Origin: an uncultured virus (IMG/VR IMGVR_UViG_3300025889_000077)
Lineage: Duplodnaviria > Heunggongvirae > Uroviricota > Caudoviricetes
Virus record (IMG/VR): IMGVR_UViG_3300025889_000077
DNA: 59,382 bases
Direction: 5' to 3' (one strand)
The notes under the pieces are model-generated. The model was not told the DNA's origin. It made no database searches and was given only the letters and a program-made list of their open reading frames with translations. Below are positions 4,487 through 53,112 of this stretch, one piece after another. Made by a program: the position numbers and the translations under genes. The stretch's first letter is position 1. Every line of letters begins with the position of its first letter.

Positions 4487-4980
4487 GCGTCGAGGCTCTT
4501 GGAGAACTTGGCGAAAAGATAGTATATGAATACTATAAGTCTCTAGGTTCTCAAATCGAAATGTCAGTTGATCCCTTCGATATGCAAAAAGATATGGTCA
4601 TTGACGGTAAATCAACAGAAATCAAGTTTCAGACTCCGTATTTTCGATTTAGTCCCCCTGGTTATGAACCCTACAAAGCATTTACTGTACCTGTCACAGG
4701 TGGGAAAAATAAACAAGTTCGCAGCAATCAACTCGACAAATGTTTGAATGCTGATCGATGGATTATTGTAGAGAACCCGTCAAAGGGTTCTAATATAGTT
4801 CGATTATGGGAAGCACCTCCTTTGGGAAAAAGACGATTTAGATTAGTTCAAAATTCGAAGGATGGCAGAATAGCAGCCGGGTTCGCCATGTCCGATTTTT
4901 CTCTGATTATTGATATTGACAATAAAAAAATGTGTGATATAATTAGAAGATCGAATAAATCACATTGGAATTATGTTTAG
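4483..4980 (+). CDS. Hypothetical protein, possible PD-(D/E)xK nuclease fold
   Basis: LGELGE...D...EIK spacing. Confidence 0.45.
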   Translation: MSVEALGELGEKIVYEYYKSLGSQIEMSVDPFDMQKDMVIDGKSTEIKFQTPYFRFSPPGYEPYKAFTVPVTGGKNKQVRSNQLDKCLNADRWIIVENPSKGSNIVRLWEAPPLGKRRFRLVQNSKDGRIAAGFAMSDFSLIIDIDNKKMCDIIRRSNKSHWNYV

Positions 4981-4988
4981 GGAGATAT

Positions 4989-6308
4989 GTGTTGAATATT
5001 GAAGACCAATGGGAATTGTGGAAAGAACAGAATCCTATAGAGAATATTCCGGAAATTACTGAAGATCAATTGCGTGAATCGCTGATTAGAGACCTTTCTA
5101 AAGTCTCTTGTATGTCAGTCGAAGAATATACACTGTATCAAAAATGGTTAGAAGTCGGAAACAAATATCCTACTCAAGAAATACAAACATTATTTGGACT
5201 CGAAACGCAATTAAAAGATACTACTCAAAAAAACATCATTCAAGAAGTCAAATCCAATATTTGGCGTCCTGTAGATATGTATGATTACATGAATTTGAAA
5301 CCTCGTTTGGTCTATACAAATGATTGTGTGGAATATGAGGACGTTGGTCTAGATGAATCGTCTGTAAAAAAAATGAGCAAGAGAACGAAAGAATTGCCAG
5401 AAAATTGGAACACTCTTCGCACATTTATGTCTACTATGAAAAACAACTCCAATATAGGAAGAAATTTAAATTTCATGGTCGAAGATGAAATTACTGGTAA
5501 ATATCTTGGAGTTATTTGTATTTCTTCAGATTTTCTGGATTTGACACCTAGGGACGAATGGATTGGATGGGAAAGAGAGAAAAAGACACAAGGACACATG
5601 ATTAACTATACTGCTATCGGTTCGACTATTGTGCCTACACAGCCATTAGGATTTAATTATGTCGGCGGAAAACTTCTGGCGCTATTGTGCTTATCTGATA
5701 CTGTTCAGAATATTTGGAAAGAACAATACGGCGACACTTTGGTGGGCGTCACGACAACTTCACTGTATGGTAAATCCAAGACTGGCGGATTATCACAATA
5801 TGATAATCTGAAACATTGGAAGAAAATGGGTTATACGTCTGGATCAGTGGCATATGAGGCCACAAAAGAAACGCAATATATGATAAGGTATTGGTTACAT
5901 CGAAATCATACTTACAAATATTTCGAATGGTACGGCGCCAAAAAGGATACAGGTCAACCATATAAGAGGGACCATAGAAACCGCTCTTATCATTTCACTT
6001 ATTCTAAATTGGGTATTCCTAAAGAGTTAATTAGTTCTGCACACGCTAGAGGCATTTACTTTAGTCCTTTGTACACAAACACAAGGGAATTTCTAAGAAA
6101 TGAAATCGAAGAGAAGGATTTAATCAAGTCTTTTGATACTAGCGAAGAATATTTAGTGAATTTGTGGAAGAACAAATATGCTTCAAAAAGACTCTCTAGT
6201 TTAATAAAAAATAATAGAGTCTCGGATGAGACATTGTTTTATGATGATCTTATTGGAAAAACTTGGGAAGAGGTTAGAGAAAAATATTTATCTCAAATCG
6301 GCAGATAA
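4989..6308 (+). CDS. DUF4338 (DruA / Mom-like GNAT) domain protein, paralog 1
   Basis: GRNLNFMV...GVICISS...RDEWIGW...GGKLLALL...TTTSLYG...W.KMGYTSG; GTG start after GGAG. Confidence 0.75.
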   Translation: MLNIEDQWELWKEQNPIENIPEITEDQLRESLIRDLSKVSCMSVEEYTLYQKWLEVGNKYPTQEIQTLFGLETQLKDTTQKNIIQEVKSNIWRPVDMYDYMNLKPRLVYTNDCVEYEDVGLDESSVKKMSKRTKELPENWNTLRTFMSTMKNNSNIGRNLNFMVEDEITGKYLGVICISSDFLDLTPRDEWIGWEREKKTQGHMINYTAIGSTIVPTQPLGFNYVGGKLLALLCLSDTVQNIWKEQYGDTLVGVTTTSLYGKSKTGGLSQYDNLKHWKKMGYTSGSVAYEATKETQYMIRYWLHRNHTYKYFEWYGAKKDTGQPYKRDHRNRSYHFTYSKLGIPKELISSAHARGIYFSPLYTNTREFLRNEIEEKDLIKSFDTSEEYLVNLWKNKYASKRLSSLIKNNRVSDETLFYDDLIGKTWEEVREKYLSQIGR

Positions 6309-6311
6309 ACA

Positions 6312-6340
6312 TTGATTTTTGTTTATAAATCTGTTATAAT
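6312..6340 (+). promoter_or_regulatory. Sigma70-like promoter upstream of the orphan tRNA-like gene
   Basis: TTGATT-17 nt-TATAAT. Confidence 0.65.
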
Positions 6341-6358
6341 GGGTAAATAAATAATAGC

Positions 6359-6426
6359 GCGGGGTGTTCTAGGTACAATCTAAATCCAGTTTAGATAGAG
6401 TAGTGCGATTCTACTACCCCGCTCCA
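6359..6426 (+). tRNA. Non-canonical 68-nt tRNA-like RNA (Gly-type acceptor, reduced D arm, UGCGAUU T-loop)
   Basis: Acceptor GCGGGGT/ACCCCGC + T + CCA; anticodon stem TCTAA/TTAGA with loop ATCCAGT; T stem AGTAG/CTACT. Confidence 0.8.
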
Positions 6427-6441
6427 TTTATGAGATTCGTT

Positions 6442-11442: not shown

Positions 11443-12296
11443 TGCACATACTTATTATTGGTCATGGTTTTGTTGGTAAAGCAGTTGATTATGGATTCTC
11501 AACAAAGGGTGTTCGAAAAACAATTGTTGATCCAATTTATGATGGGGTTCCAGTAGCATCGGCCGGATACTGGCCGTCTATAGATGATATCAAAGATATG
11601 ACCGACTTTGATTTGATCTTTGTATGTGTTCCGACGCCTATGAACGATGATGGATCAATCAATTCGTCAATTGTAGAAGAAACGGTATCATACTTGAATG
11701 GAAATGAAGTTTCGGGTATTATTGTTATCAAATCTACCATCACTCCAGATGTCGCAGAAAAGTTGCACAAATATGATAGAGTAGTTTACAATCCGGAGTT
11801 TCTGACTGAGAGAACTGCTAACGAAGATTTTGTAAATCCACCTATGCATGTATTTGGAGGTGAACAATATTTTACGGAAACTGTTCAACGCATATACGAG
11901 CAACATTCTTTATGTAAGCCTTGTCCCGTATTTCATATGACTGTGAAAGAGGCGTCATTCGTCAAGTATGGTATCAACACATATCTGGCAAGTAAAGTTG
12001 CTTGGTTCAATCAGTTTTATGATGTTGTAACAAACTATGGTGGTGCATTTCATAAAGTTATTGGTGCCATGACAACAGATGAACGCATTGGCAAATCACA
12101 CACAAACGTTCCAGGATTTGATGGTAAGCGAGGCTTCGGCGGCGCGTGTTTCCCCAAAGACACAAATGCGTTTTTGAACTTCGATCCATCATTTACGCTA
12201 TTGCGTGAAGTGATCGCAATCAATAATGCAATGCGAAGCGTCTACGAAAAAGATGATAGAGAAAAAGAACAGAATGTGAAATATGATAATACCTGA
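11442..12296 (+). CDS. UDP-glucose 6-dehydrogenase (short phage form)
   Basis: GHGFVG, CVPTP, KST, NPEFL, GFGGACFPKD. Confidence 0.9.
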   Translation: MHILIIGHGFVGKAVDYGFSTKGVRKTIVDPIYDGVPVASAGYWPSIDDIKDMTDFDLIFVCVPTPMNDDGSINSSIVEETVSYLNGNEVSGIIVIKSTITPDVAEKLHKYDRVVYNPEFLTERTANEDFVNPPMHVFGGEQYFTETVQRIYEQHSLCKPCPVFHMTVKEASFVKYGINTYLASKVAWFNQFYDVVTNYGGAFHKVIGAMTTDERIGKSHTNVPGFDGKRGFGGACFPKDTNAFLNFDPSFTLLREVIAINNAMRSVYEKDDREKEQNVKYDNT

Positions 12297-13419
12297 AAAT
12301 GATGCCGCTTGGGCTGCGGATCAATTTATCAACTATTTTAAAAATTTTACCTCAATTGAAGACTATCTTCGATATGCCAAAAAAGAAGCATTAAAATCTT
12401 TGCCAAATAAATTGGAAGGGTTTTCAAATGTTGACAAGTTTCTAAATGAAGATATGCATCCCGAAGATATGGAATTCAGTATTAGATTTGTTGGTGACAG
12501 ATTTAAAAATACACATAAAGATTTTGTTTCTCAAAACACATATAATGGACTGATTACTGCGACCTCTTCGCATGTTATTGAAAAAAATATACCGGGTAGA
12601 GAATTGAGATGGATGATTTATGAAAAAAATACCAATAAATGTGTTGGATTTATTCGCTTTGGTTCTCCAGTAATAAATTCAAAACCAAGAAATCTTTGGT
12701 TAGGAAAAGCGCCTGATCTATCTATCTTTAATAGACATGCTGCAATGGGATTTGTAATCGTTCCATCGCAACCATTTGGATATAATTATCTTGGTGGAAA
12801 ACTACTTGCACTTCTTTGTTGTTCCCATTTTGCCCGAGAAACCTTGAATGATGTATTTGAAAAAGACATTGCACTATTCGAAACCACATCTTTATATGGT
12901 TCAACAACAGACGCATCACAATATGATGGATTAAAACCATTTATGAGATATAAAGGTCTTACGGAAAGTAAATTTATGCCTTTGCTTCATGATGATGCAT
13001 TTCATCTTTTACATAATCACTTTACAATATTAAATAATAATACACCCCTCACCGAGAACACAGCCTCTTCGAAAAAGATGAAGAGACAAAACATAATGAT
13101 TAGTTCGATAAAAAAATCTTTACAAGATCCGCTCAAACTTGCCGAGTTTAATTCGGTTATAAAAACTGCTTTGGGTCTTACTCAAAGAAAGCGATTCTAT
13201 ATTTCAGATTATGGATACGAAAATGTCCGCGAAGTTATACTTGGTGAACAAGAAGAACTTCGTCGCGGACCCAACTGGGATAAATTTTATCTTGATAACA
13301 TCATTAATTGGTGGAAGAAAAAAGCATCCAAAAGATATGAAAAACTAAAAAATGAAGGTCGCTTTCGAAATAAAGTCGAACTTTGGGATGAAGACGACAA
13401 TATACAAATTATTAGGTAA
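12283..13419 (+). CDS. DUF4338 (DruA / Mom-like) domain protein, paralog 2
   Basis: VPSQPFGYNYLGGKLLALL and TTSLYG...SQYDGLK, shared with paralog 1. Confidence 0.75.
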   Translation: MIIPENDAAWAADQFINYFKNFTSIEDYLRYAKKEALKSLPNKLEGFSNVDKFLNEDMHPEDMEFSIRFVGDRFKNTHKDFVSQNTYNGLITATSSHVIEKNIPGRELRWMIYEKNTNKCVGFIRFGSPVINSKPRNLWLGKAPDLSIFNRHAAMGFVIVPSQPFGYNYLGGKLLALLCCSHFARETLNDVFEKDIALFETTSLYGSTTDASQYDGLKPFMRYKGLTESKFMPLLHDDAFHLLHNHFTILNNNTPLTENTASSKKMKRQNIMISSIKKSLQDPLKLAEFNSVIKTALGLTQRKRFYISDYGYENVREVILGEQEELRRGPNWDKFYLDNIINWWKKKASKRYEKLKNEGRFRNKVELWDEDDNIQIIR

Positions 13420-21638: not shown

Positions 21639-21702
21639 TTGACAAATCGGTCATGAGTGCTTATATTAATAGTGTAAGAGAGAGAAAGAGAGAATCACCA
21701 TG
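21639..21702 (+). promoter_or_regulatory. Early promoter/leader cassette copy
   Basis: TTGACA-17-TATATT then GTGTAAGAGAGAGAAAGAGAGAATCACCATG. Confidence 0.85.
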
Positions 21703-21861
21703 CTCTACATCCGACAAATCATGAACTACTTCAATATTGATGAGGCTTTCGCCCGTGAGATTGATGCCATGATTTTTCTTGATCGGTCGGAATGTTCTCA
21801 AGAAGAATGGGTCTGGCATATGGAATACGCAATGAATAAGTTTTTAGACGAGGCAGTATGA
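21700..21861 (+). CDS. Small early hypothetical protein (53 aa)
   Basis: MLYIRQIMNYF...LDEAV*, directly after the cassette leader. Confidence 0.7.
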   Translation: MLYIRQIMNYFNIDEAFAREIDAMIFLDRSECSQEEWVWHMEYAMNKFLDEAV

Positions 21862-22454
21862 ACAAAATGCGGTTTCATAAAGATGATAAAGTGATTCTGA
21901 CCGACTGTGACGGAGTACTACTAAACTGGGAATATTCCTTCCATGTTTGGATGAGTCAAAAAGGATATGATCGAAAGTCTTCAATAGAATATGATCTGAT
22001 CCATCACTATGATGTTGACAAACCCGAAATCAAAAAGTTGATTCGGGAATTCAACGAATCTGCTGCTATTGGTTTCTTGCCTCCGCTACGGGACGCGATG
22101 TATTATGTGGACCTGCTTCATCGGAAGCATGGTTATGTTTTCCACATGATCACTTCACTTTCAAAGGATCCGAATGCTCAAAAACTTAGGATCATGAACA
22201 CCAAGAAAATCTTTGGTGAAACGGCATTTGAGAAGTTTGTCTTTCTTGACACTGGTGAAGACAAAGATGAAGAACTTGCTAAGTACAAGAACAGTGGATA
22301 TATCTGGATTGAGGATAAAATCGAGAATGCTGAAACTGGTTTGAAGTTTGGTCTGAATTCTGTTCTGATGGAGCATGGACATAATATGAATCATGTAAAT
22401 TCTGATATACATATTGTAAAGAACTGGGAACAACTATATCATGAGGCCGCTTGA
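21858..22454 (+). CDS. HAD-family phosphatase (5'(3')-deoxyribonucleotidase-like)
   Basis: DCDGVL motif I; WIEDK..N. Confidence 0.85.
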
Positions 22455-22456
22455 TG
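22405..22456 (+). repeat. Direct repeat, left copy (3' end of HAD gene)
   Basis: 43/52 identical to 25553-25604 by manual alignment. Confidence 0.85.
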
Positions 22457-22473
22457 GAAATGAGGATGCACCC

Positions 22474-24045
22474 ATGACAACGCAAATCAAACAGGTCGAA
22501 GTCTTCCTGTTTGAAAATCCCAGCGCCGAGACGCCGAAGGGCTTTCGCGACTATTTCGGCACCGAGGTGACCGAGCGCACCGAAATGCTGGCCAAGATCG
22601 CCGAAGTCTATCATCGCTACGGCTTTGACCCGCTGGAAAGCTCGGCGGTGGAAACCGTCGAGGCACTGGGCAAATTCCTGCCCGATGTCGACCGCCCGAA
22701 CGAGGGTGTCTTTGCCTGGCAGGAAGAAGCCGAGGGCGAACGGCCCGGCGACTGGCTGGCGCTGAGATACGACCTGACCGCACCTCTGGCCCGTGTCTAC
22801 GCCCAGCACCGGAACGATCTGCCGACACCCTATCGGCGCTTCGCGATGGGGCCGGTCTGGCGGAACGAGAAACCGGGGCCGGGCCGATTCCGCCAGTTCT
22901 ACCAATGCGACGCCGATACCGTGGGCACCGGCAACGTCGCGGCGGATGCCGAGGTCTGCGCCATGCTGGCGGATACGCTTGAAGCCGTCGGCATTCCGCG
23001 TGGCGATTACGTGGTGCGGGTGAATAACCGCAAGGTGCTGAATGGGGTGTTGGAAAGCGTGCGCTCACTTGTGCCTGAGCGAGTAACGGACAATACGGAC
23101 TGGGATGAATTGAAGGTCGGCATCCTGCGAACTATCGATAAATTCGACAAAGTTGGACGCTCAGGCGTAGTGGAACTTCTGACGACGGGTCGGAAGGATA
23201 ACTCTGGTGCATATATCGATGGTGTTGGACTGCCTGAATACTGTGTTGAACCGGTTATGGATTTCCTGACAGCCAAGAGTGAAATTCAGTCGGTGACGTT
23301 TGACCGGCTAAGAAACGCCGTGGGCACATCCACCGTCGGCGCCGAGGGCATCCGCGAACTCGAACAGATCGCCGCCCTCCTCGCCGCGCAGGGCTACGGC
23401 CCCGACCGGATCGTGATCGACCCTTCGGTGGTGCGCGGCCTTGGCTATTACACCGGCCCGGTTTTCGAGGCCGAACTGACCTTCGAGATCGTCGACGAAA
23501 AAGGCAGGAAGCGGTGCTTCGGCTCGGTCGCTGGCGGCGGCCGCTATGACGACCTGGTGAAGCGCTTCACCGGGCAGGAAGTCCCTGCAACCGGCGTTTC
23601 CATCGGTGTCGACCGTCTTCTGGCTGCGCTCCGCGCCAAGGGCCGGATCGGCGGCAGCGTCTCCGGGCCTGTCGTGGTGACAGTGATGGATCGCGACCGG
23701 ATGGCGGATTATCAGGCGATGGTGTCTGAGTTGCGCAGTGCAGGGATCCGGGCCGAGGTCTATCTTGGCAATCCGAAAAACTTCGGCAACCAGTTGAAAT
23801 ATGCGGATAAACGCGAGAGCCCGGTCGCGGTAATCGAAGGTGCTGATGAGAAAGCGCGGGGCGTTGTCCAGATCAAGGATCTGGCGCTTGGCGCACGGCT
23901 GGCGGCCGAGGTCGAGACCAACGAGGAATGGAAGGCGCAGCCGGCGCAGATGGAAATCGCACGAGGCGATCTGGTGACCGAGGTCGCCAAGATGATCGCG
24001 CGGACTAATGTTTATCACGTTAATGAAGAGGTATTAGATATCTAA
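22474..24045 (+). CDS. hisS: Histidine-tRNA ligase, alphaproteobacterial type, GC-rich
   Basis: [50 protein letters not shown]. Confidence 0.97.
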
Positions 24046-24254
24046 TGAATAAATTTTTTAAATGGGCAGAAACCCAACACACGTTATACGCTATTGTGAT
24101 AAATATTACAATTTTTACAAGTTTAATGATTTGGATTGGGGTGTTATCTATATTGTGGTCATTAGGTATGGTTTTTTCTACGTTTGTTGTATTTGTGTTG
24201 CCTATGTTGATTTTTTGGGCTATACTTATCTACAAATATAAACATAGACACTAA
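24045..24254 (+). CDS. AT-rich small membrane protein
   Basis: 69 aa, two TM segments, between two GC-rich genes. Confidence 0.7.
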
Positions 24255-24265
24255 GGAACCATACC

Positions 24266-25516
24266 ATGACCACCCATGTGAAATCCGACTTTCTGCATGA
24301 AATGCAGAACCGCGGTTTCCTTGCGGATTGCACCGATCTGCAGGGCCTCGACGATGCGCTGATCTCGGGCGCGGTTCCGGCCTATATCGGCTTTGACGCG
24401 ACCGCCCAGAGCCTGCATGTCGGAAGCCTCATTCAGATCATGATGTTCCGCTGGCTGCAGAAGACCGGGCACAAGCCCTTGGTCCTGATGGGCGGCGGCA
24501 CCACCAAGGTCGGCGACCCCTCGTTCCGCGCCGACGAGCGGCCGCTTCTGAGTGAAGCCCAGATCAATGAGAATATTGATGCCATCAAGACCGTCTTTTC
24601 GAACTATATCACCTTTGGTGAAGGCGTCTCTGATGCAATGATGGTCAATAACGCCGAATGGCTGGATAGGTTGAATTATCTCGATTTCCTGCGCGATATC
24701 GGCCGGCATTTCTCGGTTAACCGGATGTTGTCGTTTGAATCGGTCAAATCGCGCCTCGACCGTGAACAATCGTTGTCGTTCCTCGAATTCAACTACATGA
24801 TCCTGCAGGCCTATGACTTCATGGAGCTGAACAACCGCTACGGTTGCCTCTTGCAGATGGGTGGCTCGGACCAGTGGGGCAACATCGTGAACGGGATCGA
24901 CCTGACCCGCCGCATCCTTGATCACGAGGTCTTTGGGCTGACTTCGCCTCTGCTGACGACCTCGGACGGTAAGAAGATGGGCAAAAGCCAGGACGGCGCG
25001 GTCTGGCTCAATGCCGAGATGCGCAGTCCCTACGAGTTCTGGCAGTTCTGGCGCAACACCACCGACGCCGATGTCGGGCGGTTCCTGAAGCTATATACCG
25101 AACTGCCGGTCGATGAATGCGACCGGCTGGGCGCCTTGAAGGGGTCCGAGGTCAACGAGGCCAAGATCACGCTGGCGAACCTCGTCACCACGCTTGCCCA
25201 TGGCGCAGAGTCCGCAAGAACAGTCGCCGAGACCGCTCGCGAAGTGTTCGAGAATGGCGGCATTGGCGATGACCTGCCGACCACGATAATCAATGCTGCG
25301 GAAATGGGCGAGGCAATTTCGATTGTTCATCTTATCGTACAGTCAGGTTTGGCGAAATCCGGCAAAGAAGCAAAACGTTTGATCGCTGATGCTGGCGCCC
25401 GAATGAATGATGAAGTCTTGACCGATGCAACTTTGATGGTATCTACCGATGATCTGCGCAACACCGTCAAACTGTCTGTAGGTAAAAAACGCCACGTCCT
25501 GGTTCGTCTGGTTTGA
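24266..25516 (+). CDS. tyrS: Tyrosine-tRNA ligase, alphaproteobacterial type, GC-rich
   Basis: [36 protein letters not shown]-terminal S4 domain. Confidence 0.97.
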
Positions 25517-25552
25517 TTCAGATGATTGTTGCAGAAACAAGAGATACGTGTT

Positions 25553-25604
25553 ATATACATATAGTGAAGAATTGGGAACAACTATACTACGAGGTTGCAT
25601 GATG
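25553..25604 (+). repeat. Direct repeat, right copy (orphan HAD 3' end)
   Basis: Translates [15 protein letters not shown] versus [15 protein letters not shown]. Confidence 0.85.
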
Positions 25605-25877
25605 ACAATTGACTACAAATTCAATGAAGGTGGGTATATTTCTGAACTACAGGAGTATATCGATTCTACTTATAACAGCCACTACTCAACAAGTAAAATT
25701 CAATCAACGGAGGTGATTATTGATCGTGGTCATGGTACCGGTTTTTGTATGGGTAATGTTGACAAGTATTCTAATCGGTACGGCAACAAAGGAACACGCG
25801 ATGATGCGCGTAAAGATTTGATGAAGATTCTGCATTACGCTGTTATTCAACTCTATATACATGATAATGAACTATGA
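25599..25877 (+). CDS. DUF3310-like phage protein
   Basis: HY...GFCMGN..KY..RYG.KG....DL.K..HY. Confidence 0.7.
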   Translation: MMTIDYKFNEGGYISELQEYIDSTYNSHYSTSKIQSTEVIIDRGHGTGFCMGNVDKYSNRYGNKGTRDDARKDLMKILHYAVIQLYIHDNEL

Positions 25878-26122: not shown

Positions 26123-26176
26123 GTGATATTTATGTCACATATAACACATAAAAAGGACAAAACCTTTGGGTTTTAG

Positions 26177-26200
26177 GAGGGACTTCGGTCCCTCTTTTTT
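26177..26200 (+). terminator. Rho-independent terminator with UUCG tetraloop
   Basis: GAGGGAC-TTCG-GTCCCTC-TTTTTT. Confidence 0.9.
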
Positions 26201-26290: not shown

Positions 26291-27256
26291 ATGGAAATGT
26301 TAACCCTATGGAGCCTCGTGGGGTTCCTTTTAGCTGCGTATGCAGTTATCGCAAACGATTCAGTACAAACGCTCGGTACGTGGATCGCGTCAAATAATGA
26401 GCGTTTCAATTATAAAATACTTTGGGGTGCAGCATCTGCTGTGTTATTGGTTACTCTTTGGTACGGGTGGGCAATGAATGGTGGTGACATATCTTTCGGT
26501 AGATTAAATAAAATTCCGTGGCAAGAAGTACAATGGTATCATGCTGCGGCTCCAGCCGTTCTTGTAGCATTGACAAGAATGGGTGTACCAGTTTCAACCT
26601 CATTCTTAGTTCTATCAGTATTTGCTTCAACTTTTGTGTTGGAGAAAATGCTAATGAAATCTATTATGGGTTATGGTGTTGCGGCGGTTTTTGCTTATGC
26701 TGTTTGGTTTGCTATTAATAAATTTGCGCACAAATGGTTTGATGAAACACAACCAGTGAGTGATAGCAACAAAAAGTTTTGGAGAATTGCGCAATGGATA
26801 GCAACTGCCGGATTATGGTACACATGGCTTTCACATGATATTGCCAACATTGCGGTATTCCTTCCACGTGAAGTACCAATTGATTTAATGATATTCATTT
26901 CAATAGTATTTGTTGGTGGCTTGTTCTTTATGTTTAGAGAAAAAGGTGGGAAAATTCAACAAATTATTTTGGAAAAACACAATACAAGATATGTTCGTTC
27001 TGCTACGTTGATTGACTTCTTTTATTGGATGTGTTTGTACTTCTTTAAAGAACTAAATGATATTCCTATGAGTACTACATGGGTATTTGTTGGTTTGTTA
27101 GCAGGTCGTGAACTTGCGATGGCAACATACTTTGGTAAGAAGAAAACAAAATCAGTATTCCCATTGGTTGCTAAGGATTTTGGTAAAATGATGGTAGGAT
27201 TAGGCGCATCAGTTGCTCTTGTACTAATGGTACATTACATTATCAATCCAGTGTGA
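26291..27256 (+). CDS. Multi-pass membrane protein, putative PiT/PHO4-related phosphate transporter
   Basis: About 9-10 TM segments; duplicated ANDSVQ/HDIAN and PVSTS/PMSTT motifs as in PiT-family halves. Confidence 0.65.
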   Translation: MEMLTLWSLVGFLLAAYAVIANDSVQTLGTWIASNNERFNYKILWGAASAVLLVTLWYGWAMNGGDISFGRLNKIPWQEVQWYHAAAPAVLVALTRMGVPVSTSFLVLSVFASTFVLEKMLMKSIMGYGVAAVFAYAVWFAINKFAHKWFDETQPVSDSNKKFWRIAQWIATAGLWYTWLSHDIANIAVFLPREVPIDLMIFISIVFVGGLFFMFREKGGKIQQIILEKHNTRYVRSATLIDFFYWMCLYFFKELNDIPMSTTWVFVGLLAGRELAMATYFGKKKTKSVFPLVAKDFGKMMVGLGASVALVLMVHYIINPV

Positions 27257-27326
27257 CATTTTTGTCGAGTAAAAAAATTTTACAAAAGGGGTTGACATTC
27301 AGCTCCTTTTGTTGTATATATAGTCT

Positions 27327-27650
27327 GTAAACGTTGAAGCAACGTGGACACATTCTGGACCTGGGGGCGGCACCCAGCGACTCCACCATGGATACACTAT
27401 TAACAAAACAGCCGTGGCTGGCTCGCTAGACTACCCCGGGTTCTTAGTTCGTTAGGGAAAAAAGCTATAGTGTATCTTTGATGGGGTCGAAATAGGATCG
27501 ACAGGTGTGAAGATGAAGTGGAGTTTACCGTGTTGACCTACGACATTCGGTCAAATAAACTAAAGGCAAACGATAATTTTGCTCCTCGTGCTTACGCCCT
27601 TGCGGCCTAAGTTGCTTGGGTCTGATATCACCTAGAAACAGAATGATATT
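27327..27650 (+). ncRNA. ssrA: Two-piece (circularly permuted) tmRNA
   Basis: 3' tRNA half ending CTCCACCA at 27388; GGGGTCGAAATAGGATCGAC at 27483; tag ANDNFAPRAYALAA* at 27566-27610; promoter TTGACA 27292 / TATATA 27315. Ends approximate. Confidence 0.93.
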
Positions 27651-27741
27651 CGTGACCAACGAAAGAAGTCTAGCAGTATGGGTTCCCCTGCGATGAAAAA
27701 ACGGGCCCACTATTTTTATCTACAATTTAAGGAAAATATAC

Positions 27742-32775: not shown

Positions 32776-32851
32776 GCGGGTATGCTGACGGGTTCAGTCC
32801 TCGGCCTTCCAAGCCGTAGTGTGTAGGGTTCGATTCCCTCTATCCGCTCCA
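32776..32851 (+). tRNA. tRNA-Gly(TCC)
   Basis: CGGC-CTTCCAA-GCCG; GCGGGTA/TATCCGC-T-CCA. Confidence 0.9.
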
Positions 32852-33030: not shown

Positions 33031-33108
33031 GTGGGTGTAGTCCAACGGGTAGGAGACAACAGACTTAAAATCTGTACAGTGTGGGTTCGAATCCCACCGC
33101 CCACACCA
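33031..33108 (+). tRNA. tRNA-Leu(TAA), short variable loop
   Basis: ACAGA-CTTAAAA-TCTGT. Confidence 0.9.
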
Positions 33109-33115
33109 AACATAT

Positions 33116-33193
33116 GCCCGAGTAGCCCAATTGACAGGAGGCGGCAGATTTAGGATCTGTACAGTGTGGGTTCGAATCCCTCCTCGGGCACCA
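33116..33193 (+). tRNA. tRNA-Leu(TAG), short variable loop
   Basis: GCAGA-TTTAGGA-TCTGT. Confidence 0.9.
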
Positions 33194-33742: not shown

Positions 33743-33834
33743 GGAAGTGAGACTCGGTAGTCAGGAGACACTTATAAAGTCTTTAGCCCCAGATTAGGGT
33801 TCTTGAGAGGGTTCAACTCCCTCCACTTCTACCA
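33743..33834 (+). tRNA. tRNA-Ile(TAT)-like, long variable arm
   Basis: GGAAGTG/CACTTCT-A-CCA; loop CTTATAA; GCCC/GGGT extra arm; 4-nt D loop. Confidence 0.8.
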
Positions 33835-47431: not shown

Positions 47432-47815
47432 ATGAATAACGATGATTTGAATAATATTTTGGAAGATGATTTGATAGAATACGCCGCATTACATTATTAT
47501 ACTCCAAAGGGAATTGACATTGAGGAATTTTATGATGATTTGAAACGATTCAAATACGTCAAGAGATTATTGAATCGTTATTATGATACAGGTGATTTAC
47601 CAGAAAGACTTATTCTAAATCATTTGATTGTGATATTTAATGTATTTGGTTATGAAGCGGGTCTTAAAATATTAAATGTCAAGATTGAGGCAATACACTG
47701 GAATGCATTAAAGCCATTTTTGATATTTTTAGAAGCGATAAGAAATGATCAATACACAAACATACCCATGGACCAACATGTCGTGGAAAAACTGAGAGAG
47801 ATAAAGAGATGTTAG
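47432..47815 (+). CDS. Conserved T4-like hypothetical protein
   Basis: EF.DDLKRFKY.KRL...ERLILNH.I...NVFG. Confidence 0.8.
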   Translation: MNNDDLNNILEDDLIEYAALHYYTPKGIDIEEFYDDLKRFKYVKRLLNRYYDTGDLPERLILNHLIVIFNVFGYEAGLKILNVKIEAIHWNALKPFLIFLEAIRNDQYTNIPMDQHVVEKLREIKRC

Positions 47816-49542
47816 AAGAAGAACAAATTTTAGAAGGCGTCAACGATCCCGCAATATTCAAAGCAGTATTTTTAGCGGGCGGACCGGGTTCTGGAAAATC
47901 TTTTATTGTAGGTAAAACTGCTTTAGGTCCATTGGGTTTTAGAGTTGTGAACTCAGACGATGCTTACGAAATCAAACTTGCTCAAGCAGGTATGAAACCA
48001 ACACCCGAAAATATCTATTCGCCTAAAGGACAGGATATTCGGGACAGAGCAAAAGCATTAACCGCCAAAAAACAGAAACTTTATCAAAAGGGTCGTCTTG
48101 GTATTGTCATTGACGGTACTGGTAGAGACATAAACAAAATCAAAAAACAAATATCCCAGTTTCAAAAAATCGGATATGAAATAGCGATGATTTTTGTCAA
48201 TACGGATTTAGATACTGCTTTATTGAGAAACAGACAAAGAGCAAGAACATTACCCGATAAACAAGTCAAGGATATGTGGCTTGAAGTTCAAAAGAATATT
48301 GGCGCATTTCAAAAAATGTTTGGTCGTCAAAACTTTTTTGTCGTTGATAATAGCGAAGGATCGAACTGGAACCAACAAACTACGAATGTTTACAAGAAGA
48401 TCAGTGATTGGTCTAAGAAACCAGCAGATACAAAAGCAGCAAAAGACTGGATTAAAGCACAAAGAAACATGAGTGAATCCCTTGCCGTAGGATTTAATAC
48501 TCCTCACGGAAAGAGAAGCGATTTCAGAAATCTTATATTAAAACATCTCAACAAGAAAGTAAAATCTGACAAATCCAATAGACAATCCTTGAGAGGGCAT
48601 ATACTGGATATTAAAAGATCAGTAAATACAGACCTTTCAGTAAAAGAAATAGAGAGGTTATACAATACCATGAGAAAAAGAGGTTTAACTGAAGGTAAAT
48701 ATACCGATGAAATGCGGGCAAAATTAGCGAATAAGATTGCCGCTCACAACGCTGAAATGCAAAATCAAATAGATGCATACAAAAAAATGACCCCGGACGA
48801 GCGAAAGACGCATAATGCCAGGGCCGCAAAACAGGCAGAAGCGAATTGGAAGAAAGGGAAAGCGGAACTGGCCAAACAGCAGCAAAGTACCTTGCGATTG
48901 AGGTCTGGTCAACTTGTTCCTGATACTGGGGGAAAAGCGTCTGGAACTCTCAAATTAAAAGACACACATAGAGTTGACACCAACAAACCTAAACCACGCC
49001 CAACTTTAGGTGGTGTAACAAGAACTCCACCTGAAGGCAAAATAAAATTTGGACAACAAGGTGATGGTGGTTTTCCGAAAGTTGGTGGTGGCAGAGGGGC
49101 ATCCGCTCCGAATCTTGGCCGCGGATTTATCAAGAGGTTATTAAATATAGAATCATATGATCATCTTTATGAAGAAGAAGCGGGAGCAGCACCAAGTAAT
49201 ACGGCGGCATCTGCTGGAATTCCTGCTGATACTGCGAACATGGGACCAAACAAGAAAAAGAAAAAAAAGATAAGTGAAATCCTCCGAAGATATAATATTA
49301 ATATGAAAGAAGATGTGACACGGGATACTGCAATATATCGTCCAGATGCTACTGGAAAATTCACAACAACTCCTGAAGTTCGTCCGGAACCAAGACCAAC
49401 ATCAGCCCCCAAAACATCACCAAGACCTAAGACCAGACCAACATCAGCCCCCAAAACATCACCAAGACCTATGACCAGATCAATGAAATATGGGTCAGGT
49501 GCTTATCACGGTCAAAGGAATTATTTTCCACCCGCACCTTAA
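47809..49542 (+). CDS. Zeta-toxin/AAA_33-like P-loop kinase with low-complexity C-terminus
   Basis: AGGPGSGKS, NSDD, IDGTG, RN..RAR. Confidence 0.75.
   Translation: MLEEEQILEGVNDPAIFKAVFLAGGPGSGKSFIVGKTALGPLGFRVVNSDDAYEIKLAQAGMKPTPENIYSPKGQDIRDRAKALTAKKQKLYQKGRLGIVIDGTGRDINKIKKQISQFQKIGYEIAMIFVNTDLDTALLRNRQRARTLPDKQVKDMWLEVQKNIGAFQKMFGRQNFFVVDNSEGSNWNQQTTNVYKKISDWSKKPADTKAAKDWIKAQRNMSESLAVGFNTPHGKRSDFRNLILKHLNKKVKSDKSNRQSLRGHILDIKRSVNTDLSVKEIERLYNTMRKRGLTEGKYTDEMRAKLANKIAAHNAEMQNQIDAYKKMTPDERKTHNARAAKQAEANWKKGKAELAKQQQSTLRLRSGQLVPDTGGKASGTLKLKDTHRVDTNKPKPRPTLGGVTRTPPEGKIKFGQQGDGGFPKVGGGRGASAPNLGRGFIKRLLNIESYDHLYEEEAGAAPSNTAASAGIPADTANMGPNKKKKKKISEILRRYNINMKEDVTRDTAIYRPDATGKFTTTPEVRPEPRPTSAPKTSPRPKTRPTSAPKTSPRPMTRSMKYGSGAYHGQRNYFPPAP
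49393..49479 (+). repeat. 42-bp tandem duplication (RPTSAPKTSPRPKT)
   Basis: Two near-identical units at 49393 and 49435. Confidence 0.9.
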
Positions 49543-52549: not shown

Positions 52550-52696
52550 ATGAAGAGAAGTTACTACAATCTAGAATGTGATAGATGTGCTACAGAAACG
52601 ACCATTGTCGTGGATAATAGTAATGAGGAACCAGTCTATTGTCCCATATGTGGTAACGAAGCATATGCTACATTAGAGGATGAAGATGAAGAATAG
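52550..52696 (+). CDS. Small zinc-ribbon protein
   Basis: CDRC...CPICG; GAGG RBS. Confidence 0.7.
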   Translation: MKRSYYNLECDRCATETTIVVDNSNEEPVYCPICGNEAYATLEDEDEE

Positions 52697-53112
52697 TGTG
52701 GTATTACCAAAATAAAGTATTTACTTCCGATGATATTGATGATAATATAGGTTTTGTGTATGAGATAACAAATACACAGAATCACATGAAATATATCGGA
52801 AAGAAAAACTTTTGGTCCACACGAAAACTTCCCCCTCTCAAAGGTAAAACCAGAAAACGCACAGTCGTAAAAGAATCCGACTGGCAAGATTATTTTGGTT
52901 CTTCCGAAGAAGTGAAGTTACTTGTAGAACAGCACGGCTCCGATATATTTCACAGAGAGATATTACACTTGTGTAAATCAAAAGGTGAAATGAGTTATAT
53001 GGAAGCAAAACTTCAGTTTGATTTTGAAGTGTTACTAAAAGACGACTACTATAATGGCATCATAAACTGCCGAATCAATAAATCTCATGTAAAAGATTTG
53101 AGAAGAAAGTGA
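52696..53112 (+). CDS. GIY-YIG-like endonuclease
   Basis: GFVY.IT.....YIGKK, Y.GSS, YYN. Confidence 0.8.
   Translation: MWYYQNKVFTSDDIDDNIGFVYEITNTQNHMKYIGKKNFWSTRKLPPLKGKTRKRTVVKESDWQDYFGSSEEVKLLVEQHGSDIFHREILHLCKSKGEMSYMEAKLQFDFEVLLKDDYYNGIINCRINKSHVKDLRRK

Follow-up and report, generated by a model that had tools for sequence, protein, structure and literature searches.

How does a bacteriophage come to carry two aminoacyl-tRNA synthetases that resemble those of bacteria, and what might it gain from them? This question is raised by IMG/VR record IMGVR_UViG_3300025889_000077, a 59,382-nt stretch of DNA from an uncultured virus (Caudoviricetes), which we analyzed over its full length and call the window. 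In it, hisS and tyrS, the genes for histidyl-tRNA synthetase (HisRS) and tyrosyl-tRNA synthetase (TyrRS), lie on either side of a small membrane gene, orf69. We find that the core of hisS, orf69 and tyrS make up a 3.1-kb module bracketed by a 57-nt direct repeat, and that both synthetase genes were almost certainly captured from bacteria of the Rhodobacterales (Paracoccaceae type), which are most likely the hosts of the phage. We hold with moderate confidence that this Rhodobacterales-derived module is one unit, that it is probably transcribed with its phage neighbours, and that its products would be active enzymes charging host tRNAs.

Identity of the phage and of its synthetases

The window belongs to an uncultured marine T4-like myovirus, as the original prediction had proposed: its markers include a gp43-type DNA polymerase, UvsX, a gp41-type helicase, ThyX, PhoH and a baseplate hub. 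The polymerase is 51% identical to that of the nearest INPHARED phage record, and no near-identical record to the window was found among deposited phages.

The hisS product scores 369.6 bits against the NCBIfam model TIGR00442 (equivalog cut-off 286.75) and 156 bits against the model of its paralogue HisZ (TIGR00443), under that model's cut-off of 271.65. Its Pfam matches, tRNA-synt_His (PF13393) and HGTP_anticodon (PF03129), correspond to the catalytic core and the C-terminal anticodon-binding domain. The tyrS product scores 358.6 bits against TIGR00234 (equivalog cut-off 113.8) and matches Pfam tRNA-synt_1b (PF00579) with an E value of 2e-75; its C-terminal S4-like domain reaches 25.4 bits against PF22421, just below the cut-off of 27. 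Both proteins align near full length to solved chains of the same enzymes, HisRS with residues 19-478 opposite 13-451 of 3net_A (a 465-residue chain) and TyrRS with residues 6-412 in the alignment to 4oud_A. HisRS is better matched by chains named 'cytoplasmic' HisRS (E about 1e-43) than by 1kmm and 1htt (E about 2e-23).

The signature blocks are also in place. In the alignment of TyrRS with 6otj_A, 'slhvgsl' stands opposite 'slhighl' (HIGH-type) and 'kmgks' opposite 'kfgkt' (KMSKS-type), and the same blocks occur in the bacterial homologues P0122 and P0123. HisRS retains the blocks beginning RQFYQCD, together with SIGVDRL; we take the conserved blocks of this enzyme to be motif 2, HisA, HisB and motif 3. 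Compared with 119 bacterial homologues, it deviates at 3 of 245 near-invariant columns (A2T, I161V and Q348C). With equivalog cut-offs passed, solved structures aligned and conserved blocks kept, the description of hisS and tyrS as full-length and motif-intact holds.

Composition and bacterial origin

The two genes stand apart from the phage in composition. Their GC content is 0.60 (hisS) and 0.56 (tyrS), against 0.33-0.42 in most phage open reading frames (ORFs) and about 0.37 elsewhere, while orf69 between them has only 0.29. At third codon positions (GC3) the values are 0.73 for hisS and 0.72 for tyrS versus about 0.35 for phage genes. Both lie within the bacterial range (median 0.714 over 160 hisS loci; 0.61-0.89 over 11 tyrS loci), so that the composition is still bacterial and unameliorated. 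The GC-rich synthetase codons in an AT-rich genome and the AT-rich membrane gene separating hisS from tyrS thus agree with what had been described from the sequence at first sight.

The origin of the genes was traced through the best 119 database hits per protein and through quick maximum-likelihood trees with support from the Shimodaira-Hasegawa-like approximate likelihood-ratio test (SH-aLRT). These hits are 74-85% identical to HisRS and 78-85% identical to TyrRS, and all named hits carry the labels Paracoccaceae, Rhodobacteraceae or genera of that group, or unspecific ones. In the trees, the HisRS core groups with P0005 (SH-aLRT 95; 97% identity over 390 columns), on an end branch of 0.031 compared with a median of 0.032, and TyrRS groups with P0122 (SH-aLRT 96; 92% identity in the catalytic part), on an end branch of 0.091 in that part and 0.15 overall. 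No hisS locus above 79-80% protein identity was found in the scanned genomes and metagenomes, and TyrRS identity is at most 80% among 401 genomes of the family. The named hits and the tree grouping bear out the host-like, Rhodobacterales phylogeny that had been anticipated, and we regard the structure and the origin of the module as close to certain.

The type of HisRS adds a further link to the host. For the RRCH clade of alphaproteobacteria, HisRS has been described as being of eukaryotic descent and as having co-evolved with a tRNA-His without G-1 (Amrine et al. 2014, PMC3937112). Consistent with this, the phage HisRS nests among Rhodobacterales sequences and is better matched by 'cytoplasmic' HisRS chains; it differs in being phage-borne and in having other sequence in place of 15 residues at the N-terminus and 13 at the C-terminus. 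The pairing of RRCH-type HisRS with a tRNA-His without G-1 argues that the phage HisRS can only serve a host of that group. These results provide a concrete host lead, Rhodobacterales, for an uncultured marine T4-like phage clade. One bacterial HisRS homologue, P0002 (686 aa), contains an internal tandem duplication of ~180 residues, which may be an artefact of assembly or gene calling.

Junctions and age of the module

Sharp switches of composition, together with two other contigs that start within tyrS, are also what an assembly chimera of phage and bacterial reads could produce. We consider this explanation extremely unlikely. L001, a 29.7-kb IMG/VR contig with another metagenome id, contains the complete module and mismatches the window at 8 positions over 13,602 nt, and the two contigs that start inside tyrS (L003 and L004, from two further metagenome ids) cross into the downstream phage DNA, so that the same junctions recur under three other metagenome ids. 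A chimera would have to be joined at four points, on both sides of an AT-rich ORF, yet the reading frames are open across the joins of hisS, and duplicated phage sequence flanks the module. Moreover, tyrS is absent from the surrounding ~3 kb in all 80 Rhodobacterales hisS loci compared, and one piece of host DNA could therefore not have delivered the pair. With three contigs in agreement and the two genes not adjacent in bacteria, the junctions, on which the original prediction depended, are real.

The same contigs bear on the age of the module. L001 has exactly the hisS and tyrS of the window, and the 8 differences between the two contigs all fall at 25563-25652, within the right repeat or immediately beyond it. 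The 1162 nt of tyrS compared with L003 contain 0 differences, whereas the flank has 43 in 2969 nt (1.4%; Poisson probability of zero about 5e-8), a count that omits a hypervariable bin in the tmRNA (transfer-messenger RNA) region. An invariant tyrS beside a divergent flank indicates that the module is younger than the strain split or has moved between strains. The claim of a recent capture is thus sustained by the unameliorated composition, by the lack of polymorphism in tyrS against 1.4% flank divergence, and by an empty site in a close relative. As for the bin itself, a single 250-nt interval of the tmRNA region (27250-27500) contains 43 of the 86 window-L003 differences outside tyrS.

Integration at a duplicated flank

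The repeat that brackets the module is a duplication of the 3' end of the upstream phage gene (PHROG 420). Only two copies occur in the window, where 0 are expected by chance, and the right copy still reads as the final codons of the upstream gene, overlapping the start of the DUF3310 gene that follows. The corresponding empty site is found in contig L006, whose left and right flanks are 98% and 88% identical to those of the window: here the flanking genes are joined directly, the repeat is present once, and all three module genes are missing. L006 also lacks the gene at 26291-27256 (+) for a 321-aa multi-pass membrane protein that has no Pfam or PHROG family; this second indel nearby implies that the region is variable in general.

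Elsewhere the module is rare. Among 80 loci retrieved with the upstream gene, one is the same contig, one is L006, and the other 78, in which the upstream gene is 59-67% identical, are without module genes. A further 80 loci were retrieved with the DUF3310 gene; 76 of them belong neither to this lineage nor to the contig of L006, and none of these has a synthetase. In the whole set of 164 viral loci, only 8 contain a GC island or a synthetase, all from three contigs of the same lineage. For orf69 we found no family, and no IMG/VR relative beyond its own contig. Short-word searches of the 164 viral loci and the window for the origins of the hisS leader and tail, the spacer and orf69 gave matches at chance level only.

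We propose that the module was integrated by recombination of circular or partly homologous DNA, for which a duplicated upstream 3' end would be the expected footprint. hisS and tyrS would have been acquired in at least two capture events, most likely from the phage's hosts. Separate captures, as originally suggested, are likely because the two genes are neighbours in none of the 80 bacterial loci; an AT-rich ORF without relatives (ORFan) lies between them, and their distances to bacteria are unequal (97% versus 92% identity; end branches 0.031 versus 0.091-0.15). This conclusion has to be qualified in one respect: one pair of repeats brackets all three genes, and the relative lacks all three together, so that the module now behaves as one unit.

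Only one other viral contig with this type of HisRS was found, at 48% identity: L333 (IMGVR_UViG_2751185860_000004), a contig of 36% GC. Its hisS, of the same subtype (4977-6431), shows no compositional contrast and lies between two genes for AntA antirepressors, beyond which stand an integrase gene to one side and a gene for a single-stranded-DNA-binding protein to the other. The context resembles a prophage or its flank, but a second mobile hisS is also conceivable.

Refitted ends and internal mosaics

The homology of hisS to bacterial genes stops short of both ends. Bacterial HisRS sequences match only residues 16-510 of the 523-aa form (nt 22519-24003), and the match starts at residue 16 in nearly all loci. 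The first 15 codons, and the last 13 codons with the stop, are AT-richer sequence that matches no bacterial homologue; the bacterial proteins begin instead with a lysine-rich MAK... stretch. A GAGGA motif lies 7 nt ahead of the ATG at 22474, which is the likely start of the gene as judged from these features. hisS was cut inside both ends and then received a ribosome-binding site, start, tail and stop from the phage side, with the reading frame preserved. The N-terminus of tyrS, for its part, is identical to that of P0122 over about the first 33 residues.

Both genes are also mosaic internally. Compared with P0005, HisRS is 98.9% identical over residues 16-195, and over residues 301-510 it is 95-96% identical to P0005 and P0003. 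Its insertion domain (196-300), however, is only 43-53% identical to this pair (43% to P0005) and finds its best match, at 77%, in P0004. The same segment has a GC3 of 0.56 versus 0.78 in the rest of the gene, a drop equalled in 5 of 148 bacterial hisS loci. In tyrS no bacterial homologue is more than 69% identical over the C-terminal domain, whose GC3 is 0.49 versus 0.78 in the catalytic part, a drop with no counterpart in 10 bacterial loci. The hisS insertion domain and the tyrS C-terminal domain vary among bacteria too, and the patching may have taken place either in bacteria or in phages.

Mosaics of this kind invite the idea that hisS and tyrS are old genes of the phage lineage that gave rise to the module, and that their cores have been repeatedly overwritten by gene conversion from the genes of the infected host, the AT-shifted ends and the variable domains being leftover old phage sequence. 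The AT-rich ends of hisS, the low-GC3 divergent segments of both genes, rare or absent in bacteria, and the abrupt change from 98.9% and 95-96% identity to 43-53% in the segment between are all consistent with it. The mosaic could equally predate capture and have arisen among bacteria, in 5 of whose 148 hisS loci an equal drop is seen and across which the insertion domain is variable in general. A search of IMG/VR, furthermore, found no older, ameliorated phage copy of the synthetases, and we judge this history very unlikely. A related scenario is a mobile 'translation cassette' of Rhodobacterales-infecting T4-like phages, which would move between co-infecting strains via its repeats while its cores are kept host-like by repeated gene conversion. 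This too is quite unlikely; if it were true, phage synthetases would be tuned continually to the current host and not captured once. For the module in the window we retain the capture of bacterial genes, followed by refitting, as the preferred history.

A possible role for the synthetases

What could captured synthetases do for the phage? Here we infer expression, enzymatic activity and benefit. On the plus strand no terminator-like site occurs from a promoter match at 21639 through the end of tyrS, the first strong one lying at 26175 (all of these are consensus matches only); the stop codon of hisS overlaps the start of orf69 (TAATG), and orf69 and tyrS are 11 nt apart. Transcription of the genes together with their phage neighbours is probable, and the products would be active HisRS and TyrRS. 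Neither tRNA-His nor tRNA-Tyr is present in the window according to both ARAGORN and Rfam, as had been noted; at least 7 tRNA genes are, including one for tRNA-Asp(GUC). Most probably the enzymes play an auxiliary part by charging the tRNA-His and tRNA-Tyr of the host, a role also proposed for the synthetases of huge phages (PMC7162821): they would supplement the charging machinery as the host's own gene expression breaks down in the infected cell.

Several observations weigh against this reading. The window covers only about one third of the estimated genome. Histidine is found in phage proteins at 0.86 times its Rhodobacterales frequency (rank 13 of 20), so that amino-acid demand does not explain hisS; demand fits tyrosine (2.0 times, rank 3 of 20), for which it is a partial motive, and was rejected as the full motive. 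HisRS lacks the lysine-rich bacterial N-terminus, and its Q348C is a non-conservative change in a near-invariant column. TyrRS deviates at 5 of 215 near-invariant columns, all conservatively but more often than any other of the 120 sequences in the comparison, and its end branch of 0.15 is about 7 times the median of 0.02; either feature could mean relaxed constraint. The module is confined to one narrow lineage and may be transient, and hisS and tyrS show no polymorphism between contigs.

These observations are shared in part by a rival explanation, that the module is passenger DNA: a very recent, neutral or slightly harmful pick-up of host genes that has not yet been lost, with enzymes useless to the phage. 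The single narrow lineage and the nearest relative without the module, the unameliorated composition, the lack of within-lineage variation that could show selection, and the conserved-column deviations and long branch of TyrRS all fit such a passenger, and the flanking repeats would permit its easy loss. However, it leaves unexplained why two unrelated host genes of one functional class should stand side by side, why a hisS fragment lacking its own start and stop should have acquired a ribosome-binding site and an in-frame start, and why the ORFs are intact over 523 and 416 codons. The same sequence is present in three contigs of other metagenome ids, identical across strains whose flanks diverge by 1.4%, which looks like spread, not decay. 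We consequently regard passenger DNA as unlikely and prefer a module that supplements the charging of host tRNAs.

The original prediction had offered a different function, a translation-rescue kit against host defences, in which the phage enzymes replace host HisRS and TyrRS inactivated by a defence or toxin, or offset the loss of tRNAs. Consistent with a kit of this kind, the window also encodes a tmRNA, several tRNAs (at least 7) and a 577-aa protein resembling kinases (AAA_33 / Zeta_toxin). Queuosine-type GUN anticodons, moreover, serve just four amino acids, histidine and tyrosine among them, and a tRNA-Asp(GUC) is present in the window. But no cognate tRNA-His or tRNA-Tyr is present in the window, and a synthetase cannot repair a cleaved tRNA; the synthetase cores are 92-97% identical to bacterial enzymes, so the same inhibitor would hit both. 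The tmRNA, which had been counted as part of the kit, is shared with L006, the relative without the module, and therefore was not part of the same acquisition but predates it. We found no recognizable tRNA-repair enzyme among the 57 ORFs of the window that were scanned against Pfam, and a search of the full-text literature yielded no defence targeting HisRS or TyrRS; to our knowledge none has been described. Counter-defence is thus quite improbable. The more speculative suggestion that the enzymes supply aminoacyl-tRNA for non-ribosomal chemistry found no support either, since the same Pfam search showed no aminoacyl-tRNA-using enzyme among these ORFs. Auxiliary charging accordingly remains the role that we favour.

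A search for signs that the tmRNA is itself a recent host capture found no DNA match in 5 Rhodobacterales genomes. Some sequences near the tRNA genes deserve mention in their own right. At 33743-33830 (+) lies a tRNA-like cloverleaf whose variable arm is long and whose ACCA end is encoded; its anticodon loop of 9 nt (ACUUAUAAA) contains no GUA. It scores below the cut-offs (24 bits for tRNA, 23.6 bits for tRNA-Sec) and receives no ARAGORN call. A long variable arm is typical of bacterial tRNA-Tyr, tRNA-Leu and tRNA-Ser. Another tRNA-like sequence (32776-32847, +), between tRNA-Asp and tRNA-Pro, has the loop CUUCCAA with a would-be anticodon UCC (Gly); it also falls below the Rfam tRNA cut-off and is not called by ARAGORN. 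Two tRNAs with Leu anticodons, UAA and UAG (33031-33108 and 33116-33193, +), are 78 nt long each and have a short variable region; bacterial tRNA-Leu is normally long-armed.

Comparison with known phage systems

Synthetases in phages, and repeat-bracketed modules in T4-type genomes, are already known. In huge phages the synthetases have been read as sustaining or redirecting translation (Al-Shayeb et al. 2020, PMC7162821). Like those described in that report, the synthetases here are related to those of the host group and are found beside tRNAs and a tmRNA. The phage itself probably falls below the size of more than 200 kb that defines 'huge phages': CheckV assigns 17% completeness to the 29.7-kb contig L001, which implies a genome of ~175 kb (an estimate from a partial contig), and the longest contig on record with these proteins in the protein collection is 121,382 nt. 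The TyrRS annotated in jumbo phages such as GAP32, CBB and BF is only 35-39% identical to the one studied here. Further differences from huge- and jumbo-phage synthetases are that no cognate tRNAs lie nearby and that a near-identical relative without the genes exists.

The closest structural parallel is provided by the PeSL cassettes and mini-circles described for T4-type phages (Arbiol et al. 2010, PMC2839356). As in that description, the module appears non-essential, lies in a variable early region, is associated with short direct repeats, differs in presence and absence between close relatives, and has a structure that would allow it to excise and integrate in circular form. In contrast to PeSL as described there, a strong sigma-70-like promoter plus terminator stem-loop, the repeat here is the coding 3' end of a neighbour gene. 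Its left copy matches the promoter consensus at only 9 of 12 positions, and neither copy contains a terminator-like hairpin. Where PeSL are reported in many copies across hyperplastic regions, there are 2 copies in 59 kb here.

To these systems the present case adds a class II and a class I synthetase (HisRS and TyrRS) within a single module, new sequence at either end of hisS, and a mosaic structure inside each of the two genes. We found no paper on a marine T4-like phage with HisRS and TyrRS in the full-text literature, whose coverage does not extend to subscription journals. The locus captures an early stage in the uptake of host translation genes, for which public data contain the site both with and without the module as well as bacterial proteins that are nearly identical. 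The mechanics of capture can be read directly from within-gene cuts, refitted ends, a duplicated flank and an internal mosaic. It also offers a small, testable case of whether phage-borne synthetases pay their way.

Feature map and neighbouring genes

Table 1. Features of the synthetase module and its surroundings, in coordinates of the window.
Feature	Position	Strand	Remarks
Sigma-70-like promoter match	21639..21667	+	TTGACA, 17 nt, TATATT; 11/12; consensus match only; precedes the module's gene run
Upstream phage gene, PHROG 420	21858..22454	+	198 aa; no assigned function; 3' end is the duplicated sequence
Left copy of 57-nt direct repeat	22405..22461		81% identity to right copy; spacing 3148 nt
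Non-bacterial leader	22455..22518	+	GAGGA 22462-22466, ATG 22474, first 15 hisS codons
hisS ORF	22474..24045	+	523 aa; alternative start 22441 gives 534 aa (longest ORF)
Bacterial (Rhodobacterales) part of hisS	22519..24003	+	residues 16-510
hisS insertion-domain segment	23059..23373	+	residues 196-300
AT-rich tail of hisS	24004..24045	+	last 13 codons and stop
orf69	24045..24254	+	hydrophobic ORFan membrane gene; 69 aa; GC 0.29
tyrS	24266..25516	+	416 aa; bacterial-type N-terminus retained
tyrS C-terminal domain	25256..25516	+	
AT-rich spacer	25517..25552		36 nt
Right copy of direct repeat	25553..25609		remnant of the upstream gene's last codons; overlaps the next gene's start
Downstream phage gene, DUF3310, PHROG 480	25599..25877	+	
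First strong terminator-like hairpin downstream	26175..26196	+	9 pairs, then T run; consensus match only
tmRNA, alpha-type permuted	27288-27652		ARAGORN, Rfam

Some other genes of the window are of interest apart from the module. The 577-aa protein encoded at 47809-49542 (+) has an N-terminal AAA_33 / Zeta_toxin-type kinase domain and a weak match to a polynucleotide-kinase PHROG, and could be an RNA-repair or a nucleotide kinase. When this protein and a DUF6267 protein were considered as tRNA-repair enzymes, no solved relative of either was found by sequence. A SegE-type GIY-YIG homing endonuclease gene (52696-53112, +) lies between ribonucleotide reductase and IMPDH/GMP-reductase-like genes. 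Finally, two paralogous PHROG 19197 proteins, encoded at 4965-6308 and 12283-13419 (+), have Pfam matches to DruA, a domain of the Druantia defence system, with E values of 3e-23 and 3e-9.

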